Below, piece by piece: positions 3,189-28,263 of a stretch of DNA of 30,308 bases (position 1 is its first letter; the number at the start of each line of letters is the position of its first letter). Under the pieces are notes generated by a model. That model made no database searches, had not been told where the DNA came from, and was given only the letters and a program-made list of their open reading frames with translations. The position numbers were made by a program, and so were the translations under genes. Source of the DNA: a virus; UHGV virus genome UHGV-0218987. The stretch is one strand, 5' to 3'.

Positions 3189-5933
3189 TTAACCTTTAGA
3201 AAAAACAGACAGTAACGGAAGTGTAAAAGTCGACACACCAGTATTCATCATGCAGGTTTTACCACCTGAGTATCCAGATATGGTTTGCGAAACTGGACTT
3301 CCTGTTGTTGGGAAAATGGTGATTTCATCCCCCCCCTTCAATACTCTAACTTTGCCTGTAACATCAACCGATGAACTTGAAACAGACGTGAGAGATCCGT
3401 TGGTCATTGTATAAAAGTTTATAGTTCCTGTTGCTGTTCTGCTTACACCACATCCTGATTTTTGCTTCTGTTTATAGTTAAACAATACCAGCAGGCCAAC
3501 AGGCATTGACTCAAGCTCAACTGCTGTAGACTGGTAGGTCTTACTGCCGTTTCTCATGTCAGGAGCCTCATCATCTGGATCAGAAAAATTATACCCAAGA
3601 GTTAAATCATTAACCGTGGCATTATTCCCTGTTATTCCTTTGACTTGATTAACACTTAACGGTATGTAATTAAACCCTGCAAAAAGCGGTGTTAACTTTT
3701 CTCTAAATAAAAGGCCTGGTGGGTATACTAACGAAGGTGTACCATCATATGTCACTGAGATAATATTAAGTCCCTTTTTAAGGGTTCCAATGCACGTTGT
3801 TTGTTTGCCTGTAAATGATGTTAGCCCATTGCTGGCAACTTTACCTGATAGATAAGAAGAGTTCCTGATGTCATTGAGAATGACATTGAACTGGTTAACA
3901 CGATCTGATGAAGTATAAGTTGGGTTATATGGCTCAAATAATGTTACAGAGATATCGCTTGTATCACTCCATACAAAATACCGACAAATAACATTTTCAT
4001 TTGAAGGCGTAATCCTTCCCCATCCACCAAGTGCATCAAGATAATCACCTCCACTTAATATCGAAATTGATGGGTAGTATCTGGTATTTGAAGGGTATCC
4101 AATACCAATAAATGAAAGTTGAGTAGTAGGGATTAGGTTCTTATTTTTTACAGCTGTATAAACGCGCTCTTTTAATACCTCTTTTGCAGCATAAGCACCG
4201 ATGTATGCATGTCCTATCGTTGATGGATGGCTCTGGTCAAAGACAGTACCGCCGTCACGTTTGGCAACATCAGATATAGAGTACGCGCCTATATCTGCAT
4301 AAGCGTCAGTCGTGGCAATGGACAAATCCAAAAACTCGACCTTTGGGAAAAGGCGTTCGATACGCTTCTTAATGGCTGACTCCAGGAAAGCCTTTGGCGC
4401 ATCGTTATTGTTTACAGTAACAAAGCATATCGGACAACCATATCCCCATGATTTTCTAATCAACTTTTCAAACTCATGAAAATACGCTTCAAATCCTATT
4501 GTTGGAAGTATTCCATTGTCATTAAAACCAAGGCTTATAAAAAGAACATCAGGAGCTTTTTTTCCATACGCAGCATTCTGGAAAAATCCATAGTCGAAGT
4601 TTTCATAACCCCAACCTGTCGCAAGTGACTTGCCAGACGATCCGCAGTTATATGCTTTAAAAATATTATCCGTGCTGTCGGATAGCATATTGAGGCAATC
4701 AGTAAAAATTCTGAACCATGAATGCTTACCGCCATTTAAATTATGATTGTAGTTGGTAGAGTTAAGATTTCCATCGCTACCAGTCGGGTTCGGGGTCCAT
4801 CCTGAACTATAGGCTCCATCCGTTATAGAATCACCAATGATACCTACATGGCAATCTTCTATAGTTGATTGGTAACTCTGCTTATTTGCAAATTTAGCAA
4901 TTGTTCCAAGAGCAGTAAAATCAGGGCCATTGTTAGATAGCCCAACATCAAAAACATGCTCATTACCCCATTTGTCTCTTGTGAGAATTTTACCTTCTCC
5001 AAGAAATTTAGTCACATCATCTGACGGTAAAAAATTACACCTGATGGTTACATCTTTTGGGATGTAAATCTGACCAGGGAAAGCATAAATTGCACTTCTG
5101 TTGTCAGTTGTCGTGTTAATAACGACATTTGGAACATAAAATATTGACGTTGCGTCAGTTCTATATTGTCCGTTAACAAGCTCAGATCTGAGAACCGCAT
5201 CCCCAACACCTCTCCAAGCGCCAGGACCAACACCACCAGTAGTGGTAGGAGTTGATCCTGGAGGAACTACTTTGGGCAGTGGCCCGTCCCATCTGTAGTA
5301 TTCGCCGTTGCTTTCCCAGAGAAGAACATCGTTAAGATAGATGATGGTATTACCCAACTCAAAAGATTTCTTCGTGTTATAGCCATACAATCCATTTTCT
5401 AAGGTTTCAATAATGGTGCTAAGTATGGTACTAAATTTTGCATAAAGATCATCAGTATATTTTTTTGTAGCAGCATCTTGGGGAAGAGATGGATCACGAA
5501 GATTTCTAATATAATTTGAAAGCGCGTCATAAAAAATTGCTACGTCATTTGGCTTTCTTAAAGCCAACTTATCATTTCTTAATGATTGTTGAATGAGCAT
5601 AGTAAGTTTATCAAACGCATCCTCATGTACCTCAGCGAAGAACTTACCCTGATTACGTAAATCCGTTTCCTGAGTAGCTGGTAGTTCTCGTGATATAGAT
5701 ATCTGATGACCGTTAGCCAACGCCTTCGAGAGAATTACATTACCGCCGTTATATCCTCCAGCCCCGGTAACTGTGTAATCAGTATCAAGAGCCAGCACAG
5801 CGATATTTTCGTCAAGGTCAACCACCTGTACTACCAGATCAGATTTATTGAAAACCCTAAAGGTGTACGGAAATGATGTCGTAACGCCGTTACCTGTGTA
5901 TTCGTTGTGGTCAACTTCGGTTGAGACCGTCAT
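3189..5933 (-). CDS. Tailspike / tail fibre with SGNH (GDSL) esterase domain
   Basis: 914-aa ORF with GGAGA RBS. N-terminal YTGNGVTTSFPYTF virion-attachment-like motif; central blocks GIIGDSITDG (GDSxxDG), ISLGFNDNG (GxND) and DQSHPS that together match SGNH hydrolase blocks I/III/V. Gene is visibly more AT-rich than its neighbours. Confidence 0.75.
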   Translation of the reverse strand: MTVSTEVDHNEYTGNGVTTSFPYTFRVFNKSDLVVQVVDLDENIAVLALDTDYTVTGAGGYNGGNVILSKALANGHQISISRELPATQETDLRNQGKFFAEVHEDAFDKLTMLIQQSLRNDKLALRKPNDVAIFYDALSNYIRNLRDPSLPQDAATKKYTDDLYAKFSTILSTIIETLENGLYGYNTKKSFELGNTIIYLNDVLLWESNGEYYRWDGPLPKVVPPGSTPTTTGGVGPGAWRGVGDAVLRSELVNGQYRTDATSIFYVPNVVINTTTDNRSAIYAFPGQIYIPKDVTIRCNFLPSDDVTKFLGEGKILTRDKWGNEHVFDVGLSNNGPDFTALGTIAKFANKQSYQSTIEDCHVGIIGDSITDGAYSSGWTPNPTGSDGNLNSTNYNHNLNGGKHSWFRIFTDCLNMLSDSTDNIFKAYNCGSSGKSLATGWGYENFDYGFFQNAAYGKKAPDVLFISLGFNDNGILPTIGFEAYFHEFEKLIRKSWGYGCPICFVTVNNNDAPKAFLESAIKKRIERLFPKVEFLDLSIATTDAYADIGAYSISDVAKRDGGTVFDQSHPSTIGHAYIGAYAAKEVLKERVYTAVKNKNLIPTTQLSFIGIGYPSNTRYYPSISILSGGDYLDALGGWGRITPSNENVICRYFVWSDTSDISVTLFEPYNPTYTSSDRVNQFNVILNDIRNSSYLSGKVASNGLTSFTGKQTTCIGTLKKGLNIISVTYDGTPSLVYPPGLLFREKLTPLFAGFNYIPLSVNQVKGITGNNATVNDLTLGYNFSDPDDEAPDMRNGSKTYQSTAVELESMPVGLLVLFNYKQKQKSGCGVSRTATGTINFYTMTNGSLTSVSSSSVDVTGKVRVLKGGDEITIFPTTGSPVSQTISGYSGGKTCMMNTGVSTFTLPLLSVFSKG

Positions 5934-5986
5934 GTTAAATCTCCAGATAGTCGCAGCACCCGTTGCGCCGCATATCCGATCATTCT

Positions 5987-6010
5987 ATTACCTAAAAAAC
6001 CACATATGGA
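5987..6010 (+). promoter_or_regulatory. Copy (ii) of conserved regulatory cassette (ATTACCTAAAAAACCACATATGGA)
   Basis: Homologous to the cassettes at 3111-3137 (minus) and 24999-25022; located in the divergent intergenic region between the tailspike and the 6129 gene. Confidence 0.45.
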
Positions 6011-6036
6011 TAGATAACCCATAAATACGAACAGAT

Positions 6037-6053
6037 ATTACCTTTCAGGTAAT
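6037..6053. promoter_or_regulatory. Perfect inverted repeat ATTACCT-TTC-AGGTAAT (operator-like)
   Basis: 7-bp perfect arms with a 3-nt spacer; same motif family as 25061-25077, 7485-7499 and 6416-6434. Confidence 0.5.
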
Positions 6054-6089
6054 TCGCAAAACGTGCTGGATAGCAAACAAATTATTTGC

Positions 6090-6109
6090 TACTGTATAAA
6101 TATACAGTT
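6090..6109 (+). promoter_or_regulatory. LexA (SOS) box TACTGTATAAATATACAGTT overlapping the promoter of the 6129 gene
   Basis: CTGT-N8-ACAG with an AT-rich spacer, a near-ideal match to the TACTG(TA)5CAGTA consensus; flanked by a -35-like TTGCTA (6086-6091) and TATTAC (6109-6114); 20 nt upstream of the start codon. Confidence 0.75.
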
Positions 6110-6128
6110 ATTACATGGAGAAGATAAG

Positions 6129-6386
6129 ATGCAGCAGTATCACTATCCACTGGAAGACGGATTTACCGAAAGGATTCACACGCCGGGAGGCGTCAGGTCA
6201 CTGGTGGAGGGATCGCACTTGATGAAATTACTCCGGGATCTCGATAAGGATGGATTTAATGTCGATGGCCCACTTGCCGAACTGACTGCACTGATTAACT
6301 ACGTCACCAGCTCACAGATGTCTATGCGGGATCTGCAAACACATCTCGACTATTGTGCCGAACAATTACGAAAACAAACCAGATAA
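6129..6386 (+). CDS. Small SOS-regulated protein, paralog of the C-terminal domain of the Bro-N antirepressor-like protein (candidate antirepressor or modulator)
   Basis: ATG at 6129 with GGAGA RBS (the listed ORF start at 6063 lies upstream of the LexA box and is unlikely). The product aligns with the C-terminus of the 6702..7412 protein (…GV…L-E-S-LM-LL…DG…V-G…AELT…RD-QTH…Y). Confidence 0.6.
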   Translation: MQQYHYPLEDGFTERIHTPGGVRSLVEGSHLMKLLRDLDKDGFNVDGPLAELTALINYVTSSQMSMRDLQTHLDYCAEQLRKQTR

Positions 6387-6400
6387 GATTTGAAATTACC

Positions 6401-6452
6401 AAGAGGAGTGCTTATATTTACCTTTGCGGTAAATTTACATCGCACTCCTCTT
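6401..6452 (+). other. Large nested hairpin (AAGAGGAGTGC … GCACTCCTCTT) enclosing inverted repeat ATTTACC-N5-GGTAAAT
   Basis: 11-bp perfect outer stem with a roughly 30-nt loop that itself contains a TTACC/GGTAA-family inverted repeat (6416-6434); followed by a second hairpin GGCACTGG-CAAAAT-CCAGTGCC at 6468-6489. Confidence 0.5.
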
Positions 6453-6522
6453 GTGCCATAGTAATCGGGCACTGGCAAAATCCAGTGCCGGGATTGGCGT
6501 CCCGAGTTACTAAGTGGCGCAT

Positions 6523-6545
6523 ACCACGCCAGACGTGGTTTTTTT
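6523..6545 (+). terminator. Rho-independent terminator (or attenuator) downstream of the 6129 gene
   Basis: Stem ACCACG / CGTGGT with loop CCAGA followed by seven T. Confidence 0.6.
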
Positions 6546-6701
6546 ATGCGTTAAGCACAGCCATATCCGAATTATGGTGGGCTGGGCAGGGGTCCGAAAG
6601 GACGCCGGTACCACTTAGGCCGGTACGCCAACCTTGTCCAGTTCACCACCAGTAATTGGCGTTGCGGTGGTGATTAAAATCACTAAGTGGAGATAACCAC
6701 C

Positions 6702-7412
6702 ATGGCTAATGCTCAAACTGCCATCTTCAAATTTGAATCTGTTAACCCTATCCGTTCCATCATTATCGATGGCCAACCATGGTTTGTAGCCCAAGACGTT
6801 TGTAGTGCGCTGCGTATCCAAAACGTCACCCAAGCACTTGAAAAACTGGATGATGATGAAAGGTCTATGTTCAACATAGGGCATGAACATCGTGCAATTT
6901 TTGACAGCCGAGTAAAAGAGATCAACATCATCTCCGAGTCAGGCCTCTACACACTGATCCTCCGCTGCCGCGATGCGGTGACACCAGGCACTATCCCCTA
7001 CCGCTTTCGTAAATGGGTTACAGGTGAGGTTCTTCCTCAGATCCGCCGCACCGGAAGTTACATTAAAAACTCGCTCCCGCAGGAAGAACGCATAAAGATG
7101 GTTGCCGACCAGGTAGCCAACGCCACAGCATCAGCAGTGATGCAGGCAATGAAGATAGAGAACAAAACCTACAGTGCCCCACTGAAGCCCGGCTACCGCA
7201 GTCTGATTCATTCTCCGTCTGGTGTTCTCGGCCTGACGGAGAACTCACTGCTGATGAATTTGCTGAACCAGTTGCAGGAAGACGGGCACGATGTATCGGG
7301 CGCGGCGGCGGAGCTGACCACCATGTTTTGCTACATCGTTGGTGTGAGCAAATGCCTGCGTGATATCCAGACTCACGCGGAGTACATCAACGACAAGGCT
7401 GGGTTCTTCTGA
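6702..7412 (+). CDS. Bro-N / KilA-N-type antirepressor-like protein
   Basis: N-terminal Bro-N signature (FKFESVNPIRSIIIDGQPWFVAQDVCSALRIQN … YRFRKWVTGEVLPQIRRTGSY). Start at ATG 6702 with GGAGA RBS (the listed ORF starts at 6687). C-terminal about 70 aa paralogous to the 6129..6386 product. Confidence 0.75.
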   Translation: MANAQTAIFKFESVNPIRSIIIDGQPWFVAQDVCSALRIQNVTQALEKLDDDERSMFNIGHEHRAIFDSRVKEINIISESGLYTLILRCRDAVTPGTIPYRFRKWVTGEVLPQIRRTGSYIKNSLPQEERIKMVADQVANATASAVMQAMKIENKTYSAPLKPGYRSLIHSPSGVLGLTENSLLMNLLNQLQEDGHDVSGAAAELTTMFCYIVGVSKCLRDIQTHAEYINDKAGFF

Positions 7413-7456
7413 CGGGCGGCGGCACAGGGATGTGCCTTTAAATAATTCTGTACAGA

Positions 7457-7499
7457 TTGCAGACTGTGGGTGAATAGCGTACTATTACCTCAAGGGTAA
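7457..7499 (+). promoter_or_regulatory. Sigma70-like promoter (TTGCAG-N17-TACTAT) overlapped by inverted repeat TTACCT-CAA-GGGTAA
   Basis: -35 at 7457-7462 and -10 at 7480-7485 with a 17-nt spacer; the inverted repeat at 7485-7499 (5 of 6 arm positions complementary) overlaps the -10 and +1 region, suggesting repressor control. Confidence 0.5.
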
Positions 7500-7559
7500 A
7501 CGGATTGGTTTCATTTTTATTAATCCGTGTAATGAACTTATGAGATATGAGGTAATGTC

Positions 7560-7739
7560 ATGCGAAACGAAAAATTGCAGATGCGTAGAGCGCAAGCTGC
7601 CGCAAGACGTTCTTTCAATGGAAGCGTAGAGTACGTAAAAGTTACTATGACAAAAGATCACGCAAGTCGCGTATCCCGAGCTTTCTTTGATTCTCGTAAC
7701 AATAAGGAAAATTATGAGTTCGTCTGCGTCGCAGAATGA
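7560..7739 (+). CDS. Small basic ORF (59 aa) overlapping the start of the downstream gene; candidate antitoxin or regulator
   Basis: ATG at 7560 with GAGGT RBS 6 nt upstream; ends at TGA 7737-7739, overlapping the 7714 start by 26 nt in another frame. Below the 60-aa cutoff of the supplied ORF track. No homology claimed. Confidence 0.35.
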   Translation: MRNEKLQMRRAQAAARRSFNGSVEYVKVTMTKDHASRVSRAFFDSRNNKENYEFVCVAE

Positions 7740-8259
7740 TAAAAATCAAATTGTCAGATATAAGGGTCGAGTATTGCATACGCAAAATTTCTCGGCCCTT
7801 TGTGCATCTGATCTTGAGCTGAAGAAAGTATCTGATGCCTTTACCCAGTATTGGAAAACGGGATACCATCCATCTCTTGGTAAAGATGCTGCATTTGCTC
7901 GTCCGACAGAAATGCTTAAACTAAATGTCAGGCATACTCATGTCGATAACCAAGACTATATTCCAGAAGATAGTGATAAAAAACACACTGGTAAAAAATC
8001 ATCTTGGGATGCATGGAAAAATATAGCGTCTGTGCAAGTAAAATGCATACCAACAAGTGATTGCTTTTTAGTTTATTCGGTAAATCACAATCGTGATGCG
8101 CTGGTTATGTTTTTTGTTGACGCAGATGCCCACAACATAACTGAGCAAGAAGAGTTTAAAGAGGAAGCAATCACTATCAGTTATCAATTCTTTGAGAAAA
8201 CAAAAACAGAACCAATGCCTTTAGAAGAAGATCTTTTTTCTGATAAATGGAAGGAATAA
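7714..8259 (+). CDS. AT-rich cargo protein, candidate YafO-like toxin (ribosome-dependent mRNA interferase family)
   Basis: ATG at 7714 with AAGGAA RBS (the listed ORF starts at a TTG at 7687). Motif pattern GKDAAFA … KLNVRHTHV … CFLVYSV … ALVMFFVDADAH resembles, from memory, conserved YafO blocks (GRDA…, RVAHIHL, LVY, AWLLIAIL-PEPH). Followed by a strong terminator. Confidence 0.5.
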   Translation: MSSSASQNDKNQIVRYKGRVLHTQNFSALCASDLELKKVSDAFTQYWKTGYHPSLGKDAAFARPTEMLKLNVRHTHVDNQDYIPEDSDKKHTGKKSSWDAWKNIASVQVKCIPTSDCFLVYSVNHNRDALVMFFVDADAHNITEQEEFKEEAITISYQFFEKTKTEPMPLEEDLFSDKWKE

Positions 8260-25039: not shown

Positions 25040-25077
25040 TTGACATTTAACGCATGAATTATTACCTTTAAGGTAAG
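25040..25077 (+). promoter_or_regulatory. Promoter-like region (TTGACA) with inverted repeat ATTACCT-TTA-AGGTAA
   Basis: Consensus -35 hexamer; the operator-like inverted repeat sits where the -10 would be; lies upstream of the tRNA and Gp49-like module. Confidence 0.45.
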
Positions 25078-25398: not shown

Positions 25399-25475
25399 GT
25401 GGCATTAGCTCAGTTGGACAGAGCAACCGCCTTCTAAGCGGTTGGTCGCAGGTTCGAATCCTGCATGCCGCGCCA
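25399..25475 (+). tRNA. tRNA-Arg (anticodon UCU), argU-like, phage-borne
   Basis: Cloverleaf folded by hand: acceptor stem GTGGCAT / ATGCCGC (one G-U pair), D-arm GCTC…GAGC, anticodon stem ACCGC / GCGGT with loop CTTCTAA (anticodon TCT), T-arm GCAGG-TTCGAAT-CCTGC, discriminator G, encoded CCA. Confidence 0.85.
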
Positions 25476-27596: not shown

Positions 27597-28192
27597 TGAT
27601 TACCATCCTGACGTTCTTTGAGTCGCTTCCTGGCTGCCGCTATGCGATCAGCAATTGTCACATTCACATTAACATCCAGGCGTTCTTTGAATGCGTTGAC
27701 GTCGACGTGCTTACCAATCAGTTCGAGGTTCTTCACCTTGTCAGGCCATTTAATTTTTTTGAGGATTGTCTCTATCGAATCCTCGTTCATGTTCATGATG
27801 GTCGATGACAGATCAAAGCCACTAAGCGTAGTGCGCCAGATTTTCGGCCACTCACGGATTGGTTTAAGGCTCCCATCGTCGTTGAGGATATCGATCACGT
27901 CCATCTGGTCGATCTCCACTAGGCGCATGAGAACGTAATCAGCACTGACGCGCATTCGTTTGTTGCGCTCCTCCATCAACTCGGCAATCCGTTTTTGAAT
28001 GCGTTCATCGCGCATCATGACACAGGCTTTAACTGCCGCTGTATTTGGGGAGAATCCTGCGTTAATCGCTGCCTGAGTCTGGTTTTCAGGCGTTTTGATG
28101 TATGACTGGCAATAAGCCTCCTGCATTGCTGTTAGTGGCTTAAATTGCGTTGATTTGCGTTTATAGGTTTTAGGTTCAGCAGGCATCATAAC
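27593..28192 (-). CDS. Terminase small subunit (putative)
   Basis: Gene immediately upstream of and overlapping the large terminase; start taken at ATGATG 28192 (MMPAEPK…, GGTGG RBS) rather than the listed 28267. Confidence 0.55.
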   Translation of the reverse strand, partial: VMMPAEPKTYKRKSTQFKPLTAMQEAYCQSYIKTPENQTQAAINAGFSPNTAAVKACVMMRDERIQKRIAELMEERNKRMRVSADYVLMRLVEIDQMDVIDILNDDGSLKPIREWPKIWRTTLSGFDLSSTIMNMNEDSIETILKKIKWPDKVKNLELIGKHVDVNAFKERLDVNVNVTIADRIAAARKRLKERQDGNQ

Positions 28193-28263
28193 CACCGTGG
28201 TAATAGTTACCGTTGTGGTAATAGTACCATGCAAAATAAAGCCGCCATAGTTGGCGGCAGTAT

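Follow-up and report, generated by a model that had tools for sequence, protein, structure and literature searches.

A predicted P1-type C4 antisense RNA module in the leader of a Bro-N antirepressor gene of a phiV10/epsilon15-like phage

The stretch of DNA analysed here (30,308 nt, hereafter the window) has Escherichia phage HEMP4 as its closest match (97.8%) and is a phiV10/epsilon15-like (Uetakevirus) phage or prophage. The region of interest is a spacer between a small gene and a gene encoding a Bro-N domain protein, arranged as follows.

6092-6107: near-consensus LexA box CTGTATAAATATACAG, upstream of the small gene
6129-6386: small gene
6387-6701: spacer
6702-7412, + strand: Bro-N domain antirepressor gene, by family (236 aa; ATG at 6702, stop at 7412)

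A Pfam search with the small LexA-box protein yielded no match except a sub-threshold one to DUF724. The larger protein matches Pfam Bro-N (E = 9.6e-20) and PHROG 130, 'anti-repressor Ant' (E = 8e-57), and by this family membership it is predicted to act as an antirepressor. It shares 81% identity with ORF4 of phage ZX5, and from residue 76 onward all aligned residues are identical. Overexpression of ZX5 ORF4 lowered lysogeny, with prophage titres down about a thousand-fold (PMC9782041).

An earlier note, written from the DNA sequence of the window, had described the spacer as densely structured. All of the structures that it listed were found, with coordinates off by no more than 1-2 nt, including its second hairpin (6468-6489) and its intrinsic terminator (6523-6545), whose stem occupies 6523-6539 and is followed by seven T residues. 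The repeats outside the terminator are these.

6400-6411/6442-6453: 12-bp inverted repeat enclosing TATATTTACC/GGTAAATTTA at 6413-6422/6428-6437
6468-6475/6482-6489: 8-bp hairpin
6643-6650/6666-6673: inverted repeat TCACCACC/GGTGGTGA
6670-6683: GTGATTAAAATCAC

The note had also proposed RNA folding on both strands and a covariance-model scan. The + strand of 6387-6720 folds at -140.2 kcal/mol compared with -99 +/- 5.5 kcal/mol for 100 dinucleotide shuffles (z = -7.5), none of which folds as well. The minus strand of the spacer is as stable (z = -8.0). Because both strands fold equally well, energy alone gives no choice of strand; the covariance-model matches, which fall exclusively on the + strand, do. 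Specifically, an Rfam scan of the whole window produced three matches at or above curated thresholds, namely a tRNA-Arg located elsewhere and two RNAs encoded on the + strand of the spacer. Even a permissive scan (E <= 10) gave no match of any kind on the minus strand and no match to the sar model.

6469-6545, + strand: IsrK-like leader/sRNA (Rfam RF01394; 67.2 bits, threshold 50; E = 1.6e-12)
6523-6546, + strand: intrinsic terminator of the short IsrK-like RNA (6-bp stem, 5-nt loop, U7)
6570-6653, + strand: C4 antisense RNA (Rfam RF01695; 66.0 bits, threshold 45; E = 6.4e-11; full-length model)

Judged by its model match, the first RNA of the spacer is a member of the isrK family, listed in Rfam as an Hfq-binding RNA. 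Positions 1-77 of the 77-position model are matched, including the 3' intrinsic terminator, so that the terminator is supported both by an independent scan and by the Rfam alignment. The RNA is laid out as hairpin 1 (6469-6488), hairpin 2 (6489-6504) with a short segment termed a1 in its loop, a single-stranded segment termed b1, and then the terminator. Double compensatory changes occur at 6 of the 15 predicted pairs among 12 homologues. The c4-a1b1 model (RF03163) also matches at 6456-6508, overlapping the isrK match, with a score just below its threshold (44.3 versus 46.7 bits). Read-through of the terminator has been demonstrated experimentally in the Gifsy-1 homologue (PMC4825925).

The second RNA is, on the same kind of evidence, a member of the C4 family. 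Its 17-bp outer stem (6575-6591 with 6632-6648) is the largest structure of the spacer, and the earlier note had missed it. Within this stem are a hairpin capped by a GAAA tetraloop and a second hairpin that displays the recognition loop b'. The isolated C4 of the window takes the predicted fold (-43.1 kcal/mol), and the fold exhibits double compensatory changes at 11 of 26 consensus pairs in 13 homologues. The CACCACC...GGTGGTG inverted repeats pointed out in the note are present; CACCACC, however, belongs to the outer stem of C4, where it forms the 3' strand, rather than being an arm of a free-standing local hairpin. A GGU at 6576-6578 is in register with the 5' end of mature P1 C4, and CCA (6649-6651) follows the outer stem. 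GGU is the RNase P motif at the 5' end of C4, where the precursor is processed (PMC5320573). By register with the annotated 77-nt C4 of P1, the mature RNA should span 6576-6650 (75 nt). G-U pairs occur in the conserved stems, and these would read as C-A mismatches on the opposite strand.

Two short segments of C4 have exact complements both in the IsrK-like RNA and in the Bro-N leader. Neither relationship appears in the earlier note: 6611-6618 is complementary to 6510-6517 and 6683-6690, and 6625-6631 is complementary to 6494-6500 and 6656-6662.

6494-6500, + strand: a1, UUGGCGU, in the loop of hairpin 2; exact complement of a' (135 of 20000 flank shuffles)
6510-6517, + strand: b1, CUAAGUGG; exact complement of b' (31 of 20000 shuffles)
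6611-6618, + strand: b' recognition loop of C4, CCACUUAG
6625-6631, + strand: a' single-stranded recognition segment of C4, ACGCCAA
6656-6662, + strand: a2, UUGGCGU, in the Bro-N leader; exact complement of a' (39 of 20000 shuffles)
6666-6673, + strand: conserved GGUGGUGA, between a2 and b2
6683-6690, + strand: b2, CUAAGUGG; exact complement of b' (17 of 20000 shuffles)

None of the 20000 flank shuffles yields all four sites together. As a control, the identical script was run on P1, where it recovers exactly the annotated a1, b1, a2 and b2. The b2 site of the window overlaps the Shine-Dalgarno sequence GGAG (6689-6692) that precedes the Bro-N ATG at 6702. In addition, GGUGGUGA can pair with ACCACC just 5' of this ATG to form a hairpin that displays b2, and its alternative partner is the 3' strand of the C4 stem. 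Every non-P1 locus examined carries either GGTGGTGA or GTGGTGA between a2 and b2.

The loci used for comparison were those of phiV10, ZX5, phiv142-3, TL-2011b, EC.W1-9, Enterobacter phage Tyrion, three Klebsiella phages, Hafnia phage yong2, a Yersinia phage, the Stx phages CP-1639 and VT2-Sakai, Gifsy-1 and P1. Sites were compared locus by locus, because MAFFT, when applied to the complete modules of 15 loci, put gaps in the wrong places within the variable a/b loops. Across the 15 phage loci the recognition sites change in concert. For example, phiV10 has the a-sequence of the window together with a different b-sequence (CUAAAAGG/CCUUUUAG), phiv142-3 has the b-sequence of the window with a = UUGGUCU/AGACCAA, and Kp4865-1 has a = UUGAGAC/GUCUCAA.

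A scan of IMG/VR with the conserved 5' strand of C4 recovered 160 modules, of which 122 could be parsed; the other 38 either have an altered hairpin stem or are GC-rich matches unrelated to C4. Among the parsed modules there are 32 different combinations of a' and b', built from 6 a-classes and 24 b-loops, although the frequencies of these combinations do not represent prevalence because an exact-match scan for the C4 core of the window over-represents its specificity in the pooled sample. All four sites match in 30 of the 32 variants when cognate partners are compared, whereas the same is true for 38 of 992 non-cognate pairings. Of the 30 variants for which the distance from b2 to the next ATG is measurable, 24 have the 3' end of b2 positioned 7-10 nt 5' of that ATG. 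In this sample, a single b-loop can be found with as many as three a-classes. An antisense system that determines specificity would be expected to covary in this way, and the comparison of loci shows the exact a and b sequences to be the predicted determinants of immunity specificity.

Upstream of the two RNAs, the spacer carries features that are best described at the level of DNA.

6390-6418, + strand: upstream promoter-like site (-35 TTGAAA at 6390-6395, 17-nt spacer, -10 TATATT at 6413-6418; 10/12 consensus)
6400-6453: 12-bp inverted repeat, a DNA-level feature of the promoter region (-27 kcal/mol if transcribed)
6418-6432: operator-like palindrome TTACC-N5-GGTAA, between the two promoter-like sites
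6434-6462, + strand: predicted IsrK/C4 promoter (-35 TTTACA, 17-nt spacer, TG-extended -10 CATAGT)

The hexamers of the upstream site are kept in Uetakevirus relatives (TTGCAA, TTGTAA or TTGAAA, and TATATT or TATTAT), and its -10 element abuts the palindrome. The downstream promoter leads to a predicted transcription start at about 6469, which is the first base of the isrK model match. Both promoters of 6390-6462 are conserved across ten Uetakevirus-type loci, and CTTGTGCCATAGT(A/G)ATC is invariant in 10 such loci. The 12-bp repeat that spans this region had been described in the earlier note as an 11-bp-stem hairpin at 6401-6452. The repeat itself exists, at 6400-6453, but it belongs to promoter and candidate operator DNA and not to an RNA: the predicted 5' end of the IsrK-like RNA (6469) is downstream of it, and in phiV10 it is contained in a single long, perfect palindrome that has the operator-like site at its centre. 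The same stem was considered as a conserved RNA or DNA hairpin and rejected, because TL-2011b, EC.W1-9 and Tyrion do not have its left arm and show no change that would compensate for the loss. The outer 12-bp stem needs no RNA-level explanation.

The palindrome TTACC-N5-GGTAA has five exact copies in the window where 0.5 are expected. Four of these are located between listed open reading frames, and an intergenic position for the fifth (28207) depends on the small-terminase gene using inferred internal Met starts. The complete ZX5 genome contains the motif in 10 exact copies, and in 14 with a single mismatch; the one-mismatch pattern would be expected 0.63 times by chance. The ZX5 repressor gene has two copies on each side, and others precede terminase, head, integrase and replication-region genes. 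Among relatives the half-sites are conserved and the spacer between them is variable. The positions of these sites suggest that the motif is probably a candidate operator of the prophage helix-turn-helix repressor. The ZX5 repressor has helix-turn-helix domains, and a Pfam search of it returned no peptidase domain match. Therefore, this repressor is probably inactivated by an antirepressor and not by self-cleavage.

Taken together, the position and covariation of these elements make it very probable that the spacer is the control region of an immI-type secondary immunity operon, in which a P1-type C4 antisense switch acts on the antirepressor gene. The predicted tandem promoters at 6390-6418 and 6434-6462 bracket the candidate operator, to which the prophage helix-turn-helix repressor is probably bound. 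Transcription from about 6469 would first produce the IsrK-like leader with a1 and b1 as decoy sites, and most transcripts should end at 6523-6546 to give an sRNA of about 77 nt. By analogy with Gifsy-1 IsrK, this short RNA may titrate C4 through a1 and b1. Transcripts that read through the terminator would carry C4, and RNase P together with 3' trimming probably releases an RNA of about 75 nt (6576-6650), as in P1. Acting in trans, C4 would then use a' and b' to pair with a2 and b2 on the same or sister transcripts; the complementarity is observed, and its effect on expression is what we propose. Since C4 would cover the Bro-N Shine-Dalgarno sequence, antirepressor synthesis should be prevented in a lysogen, and likewise from a superinfecting phage that shares the specificity. 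The earlier note had suggested a small RNA or translational control of the antirepressor-like gene, by analogy with the sar RNA of the P22 immI region. Suitably placed small RNAs agree with this suggestion, as does a terminator that transcription would have to pass in order to make C4 and the Bro-N mRNA. The analogy to sar captures the spirit of the system and errs on its mechanism, as the regulator is encoded upstream on the strand of its own target.

The proposed C4 switch is at odds with some observations. The c4-a1b1 match falls just under its threshold, although the overlapping isrK match passes. Furthermore, P1 uses the leader open reading frame icd and Gifsy-1 uses orf45, but no open reading frame of this type links C4 to the Bro-N start codon in the window. 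The frame that begins at ATG 6574 ends after 14 codons, at a TAG (6616-6618) within the b' loop and 84 nt before the Bro-N ATG, and downstream there is only a 20-codon frame with a TTG start (6634-6696). Because the leader frame stops so early, the Bro-N ribosome-binding site must be the direct target of C4, and the lack of an icd- or orf45-like frame means that the coupling step must differ from those of P1 and Gifsy-1. In the Gifsy-1 study, the authors invoke alternative folds of a long transcript instead of a processed C4, and co-expression of STnc1160 failed to relieve IsrK toxicity (PMC4825925). We have therefore weighed an activation mechanism of the Gifsy-1 type, wherein a silent fold of the read-through transcript is opened in trans by the short IsrK RNA and a small upstream open reading frame is coupled to the antirepressor gene, with no processed C4. 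The window contains an above-threshold IsrK homologue with its terminator, in the same gene order as Gifsy-1, where IsrK supplied in trans raised anrP translation 139-fold in a manner partly dependent on orf45 translation (PMC4825925). A rise of this size is also what an a1/b1 decoy would do to a C4 repressor. Moreover, 'helix b-I' of Gifsy-1 is the a1·a' pairing of the C4 system, the orf45 frame is lost in the window so that coupling cannot operate, and covariation extends to a2 and b2, sites at the ribosome-binding site of the antirepressor gene that have no role in the published model. As a separate mechanism for this phage, we regard Gifsy-1-type activation as doubtful. The two models are largely one set of facts described differently, and IsrK as a competitor for C4 fits both.

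C4 might instead, or in addition, control transcription as an attenuator of the P4 CI or N15 CA type, by binding nascent a1/b1 and altering termination at 6523-6546. The a1 and b1 sites immediately precede the terminator, with 5 nt between the end of b1 and the stem, they covary with C4 as strictly as a2 and b2 do, and a covarying helix brackets the terminator. The authors of the Gifsy-1 study likewise raised a P4 CI-like possibility for STnc1160 (PMC4825925). We nevertheless judge attenuation to be unlikely, given that a folding search gave no clear antiterminator for C4 bound at b1 to disrupt, that the IsrK region is made up of three independent hairpins with b1 unpaired, and that the P1 record annotates a1 and b1 merely as putative target sites. 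Far lower probabilities attach to two further readings. One holds that the region is protein-coding, as 'Ash family' or hypothetical open reading frames of relatives or a 100-aa frame at 6353-6655 would have it. Frames of 20-100 aa do exist on the + strand, and both ZX5 and Hafnia phage yong2 carry an 'Ash family' annotation over the C4 region; these frames are not conserved, their stops arise in the variable b' loop, substitutions track base-pairing and not codon patterns, and the covariance-model scores are well above threshold, which together render a coding function very hard to credit. The other is a sar-like cis-antisense RNA that would be made from the minus strand and run over the Bro-N ribosome-binding site. 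Its attractions are that the region precedes an antirepressor gene and that the minus strand folds as stably as the + strand, but 5900-7650 yielded no minus-strand promoter-like site when scanned, the minus strand lacks Rfam matches even under the permissive cutoff, and the G-U pairs of the conserved stems suit the + strand only. Such an RNA is exceedingly improbable.

Starting from the C4 switch, we offer a broader proposal that is tentative, and as a joint reading of four parts we consider it possible rather than probable. According to this proposal, the module would be a node of a two-input induction circuit that is undescribed for phiV10/epsilon15-like phages. The SOS input would be provided by a LexA-controlled, stand-alone copy of the antirepressor C-terminal domain (6129-6386). 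The second input, with a threshold set by RNA, would be the C4-gated Bro-N antirepressor with the IsrK-like RNA as a C4 sponge, and both would be subject to a repressor with dispersed, P1-like operators. Lastly, a and b sequences that reassort independently across enterobacterial phages could form a combinatorial heteroimmunity code.

Both isrK and C4 score above threshold in Gifsy-1 and in all of the non-P1 phages examined, and P1 has matches to C4 and c4-a1b1 and none to isrK. Of 5426 complete E. coli genomes, 457 contain the region, and in three of these the identity is 100%. Of the records examined, neither the non-P1 phage entries nor the single RefSeq entry for E. coli annotate the two RNAs, and some phage records bear spurious 'Ash family' or hypothetical open reading frames over them. 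A literature search for C4 or antisense control in phiV10/epsilon15-like phages found nothing specific. Given that the pairing of these RNAs is known from APSE phages, that IsrK and STnc1160 are known, and that the region is widespread, the spacer is an unannotated example of an already known module. Thus, its structure requires no new mechanism, and the practical value of identifying it is annotation. The combinatorial variation in a and b predicts which prophages cross-repress one another's antirepressors.

The C4 RNA of P1 and P7 is excised from a transcript that it shares with its target, and it acts in trans by means of two short loops. The window has the same order of elements on one strand as the immI operons of these phages: one or more promoters with a repressor operator (a candidate operator in the window), a1, b1, C4, a2, b2 and the antirepressor gene. 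It also has the same C4 fold and a b2 site on the ribosome-binding site. In P1, the C1 operator (Op51/Oc4) is located at the c4 promoter, and the palindrome of the window would play that part, although the C1 operator is an asymmetric 17-bp sequence and TTACC-N5-GGTAA is a palindrome. The leader open reading frame icd is a feature of the P1 operon and not of the C4 RNA family, and the window is without it; its b2 site instead lies directly on the antirepressor Shine-Dalgarno sequence. Other differences are that P1 encodes an Ant1/Ant2 pair where the window encodes a Bro-N protein, that P1 is a plasmid prophage and the phage of the window is an integrating podovirus (Uetakevirus), and that a'/b' are CUGUCAA/CACUAAC in P1 and ACGCCAA/CCACUUAG in the window. 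In both systems the recognition sequences set specificity, as exemplified by the heteroimmunity of P1 and P7 (PMC5320573).

The sar RNA is read from the strand opposite to ant and spans the ant ribosome-binding site. Like the predicted C4 RNA, sar of P22 is a small RNA of a secondary immunity region and keeps the synthesis of an antirepressor in check. However, sar is a true cis-antisense RNA, whereas the regulator of the window would be encoded upstream on the same strand and make two short loop contacts.

The isrK-orf45(STnc1160)-anrP locus of Gifsy-1 also carries tandem IsrK and C4 Rfam matches 5' of an antirepressor gene (PMC4825925). It has a-specificity identical to that of the window (UUGGCGU/ACGCCAA) and an intrinsic terminator that is read through. 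The two loci differ in b-specificity and in promoter, with no TTACC operator in Gifsy-1. Also, orf45 comprises 45 codons that end at the anrP ATG, in contrast to the 14-codon frame of the window, and the upstream gene is antQ in Gifsy-1 and the LexA-box gene in the window. Lysogens contain abundant IsrK and STnc1160 (bioRxiv 10.1101/787010), and STnc1160 overlaps the Gifsy-1 C4 homologue. The published Gifsy-1 mutations fall exactly in these recognition sites, with G28A/G31A residing in a1 and C159U/C162U residing in a'. With the a' mutations, anrP translation rose from 4 units to 484-926 units; compensatory pairs brought it down again and restored the wild-type RNA conformation (PMC4825925). 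The location of these mutations offers a simpler reading of that locus. Finally, in the APSE phages of Hamiltonella, c4 and isrK are found by a Bro-N gene, with a'/b' matching the upstream non-coding region (bioRxiv 10.1101/2020.03.17.996009); this likeness follows the published description, and the APSE phages belong to another phage lineage with another host.

The Bro-N antirepressor encoded in the window and its counterpart in phage ZX5 show no differences in their alignment beyond residue 75, and they diverge over roughly the first 75 residues. The 5′ segments compared were as follows.

Window 6702-6930, + strand: 5′ segment of the Bro-N antirepressor gene
ZX5 (L005) 1213-1440: corresponding 5′ segment of its Bro-N gene

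The breakpoint coincides with the change in b-specificity in the leader, that is, in the sequence of the sites complementary to loop b′ of the C4 RNA. This coincidence suggests, from the sequence comparison, that a single cassette is swapped, made up of the specificity region of C4 and the beginning of its target gene.

Folding of the region spanning 6387-6720 predicts that nucleotides 6454-6466 (UGCCAUAGUAAU), a part of the leader that includes the -10 region, pair with nucleotides 6506-6521 (GUUACUAAGUGGCG), which hold the complementary site b1. According to this predicted pairing, b1 could be masked in transcripts begun upstream, whether they start at the promoter of 6390-6418 or come from the gene under LexA control, and could not be masked by 6454-6466 in transcripts begun at 6469. 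A short helix brackets the IsrK terminator.

Window 6517-6522 with 6547-6552, + strand: helix GCGCAU ... AUGCGU, enclosing the terminator hairpin of IsrK together with the U-run

At the equivalent position in about 80 related modules this helix covaries (CACAU/AUGUG, GACAG/UUGUC, GUGCAU/AUGCGC and ACAAU/AUUGU), and it is absent from the Rfam isrK model. Its formation requires a transcript that has read through the terminator, and it may serve as a processing or stability element. Annotated open reading frames cross these RNAs in relatives: ‘Ash family protein’ calls span the C4 RNA in ZX5 (L005 1094-1207) and in Hafnia phage yong2 (L010 688-1371), the latter also covering IsrK. Such annotations probably mark no real protein but a conserved gene for RNA.

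The antirepressor also resembles the product of the neighboring LexA-box gene.

Window 6092-6386: LexA-box gene (6129-6386) and its upstream sequence; the gene product is similar to that of 7164-7409 in the antirepressor gene

The C-terminal domain of the Bro-N antirepressor shares 43% identity over 74 residues (E = 2e-16) with the 85-aa product of the LexA-box gene, and both match PHROG 450, a family of unknown function. The 85-aa protein looks, at the level of sequence similarity, like an SOS-controlled, free-standing copy of the antirepressor effector domain. If so, its presence beside the Bro-N antirepressor would suggest two separate induction routes.

Directly downstream of the antirepressor gene lies a toxin-like pair.

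Window 7560-8259: overlapping ORFs of 59 aa and 190 aa

The 190-aa ORF has a weak match to the YafO toxin (Pfam E = 9e-6), and RefSeq annotates the pair as a hypothetical protein and a YafO-family toxin. An operator-like palindrome at 7485 precedes the pair and belongs to a dispersed set.

Window 6038-6052, 6418-6432, 7485-7499, 25062-25076 and 28207-28221: exact copies of TTACC-N5-GGTAA
Window 28189-28203: copy with one mismatch

These palindromes, mostly intergenic, precede the tailspike/SOS gene, the toxin-like pair and both the head and the terminase operons. A tRNA-Arg gene (anticodon TCT; 25399-25475) separates the head and terminase gene blocks. In phage TL-2011b, a segment of ~1.1 kb (L006 67-1155; annotated as ‘similar to hypothetical protein’) separates the SOS gene from the promoter of IsrK and takes the place of the left arm of the 12-bp inverted repeat (6400-6453 in the window); it is probably an insertion. 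The complete ZX5 genome carries 14 TTACC-N5-GGTAA sites, including both flanks of the repressor gene. The scattered sites of the window phage and ZX5 are similar in layout to the dispersed C1 operators of phage P1.
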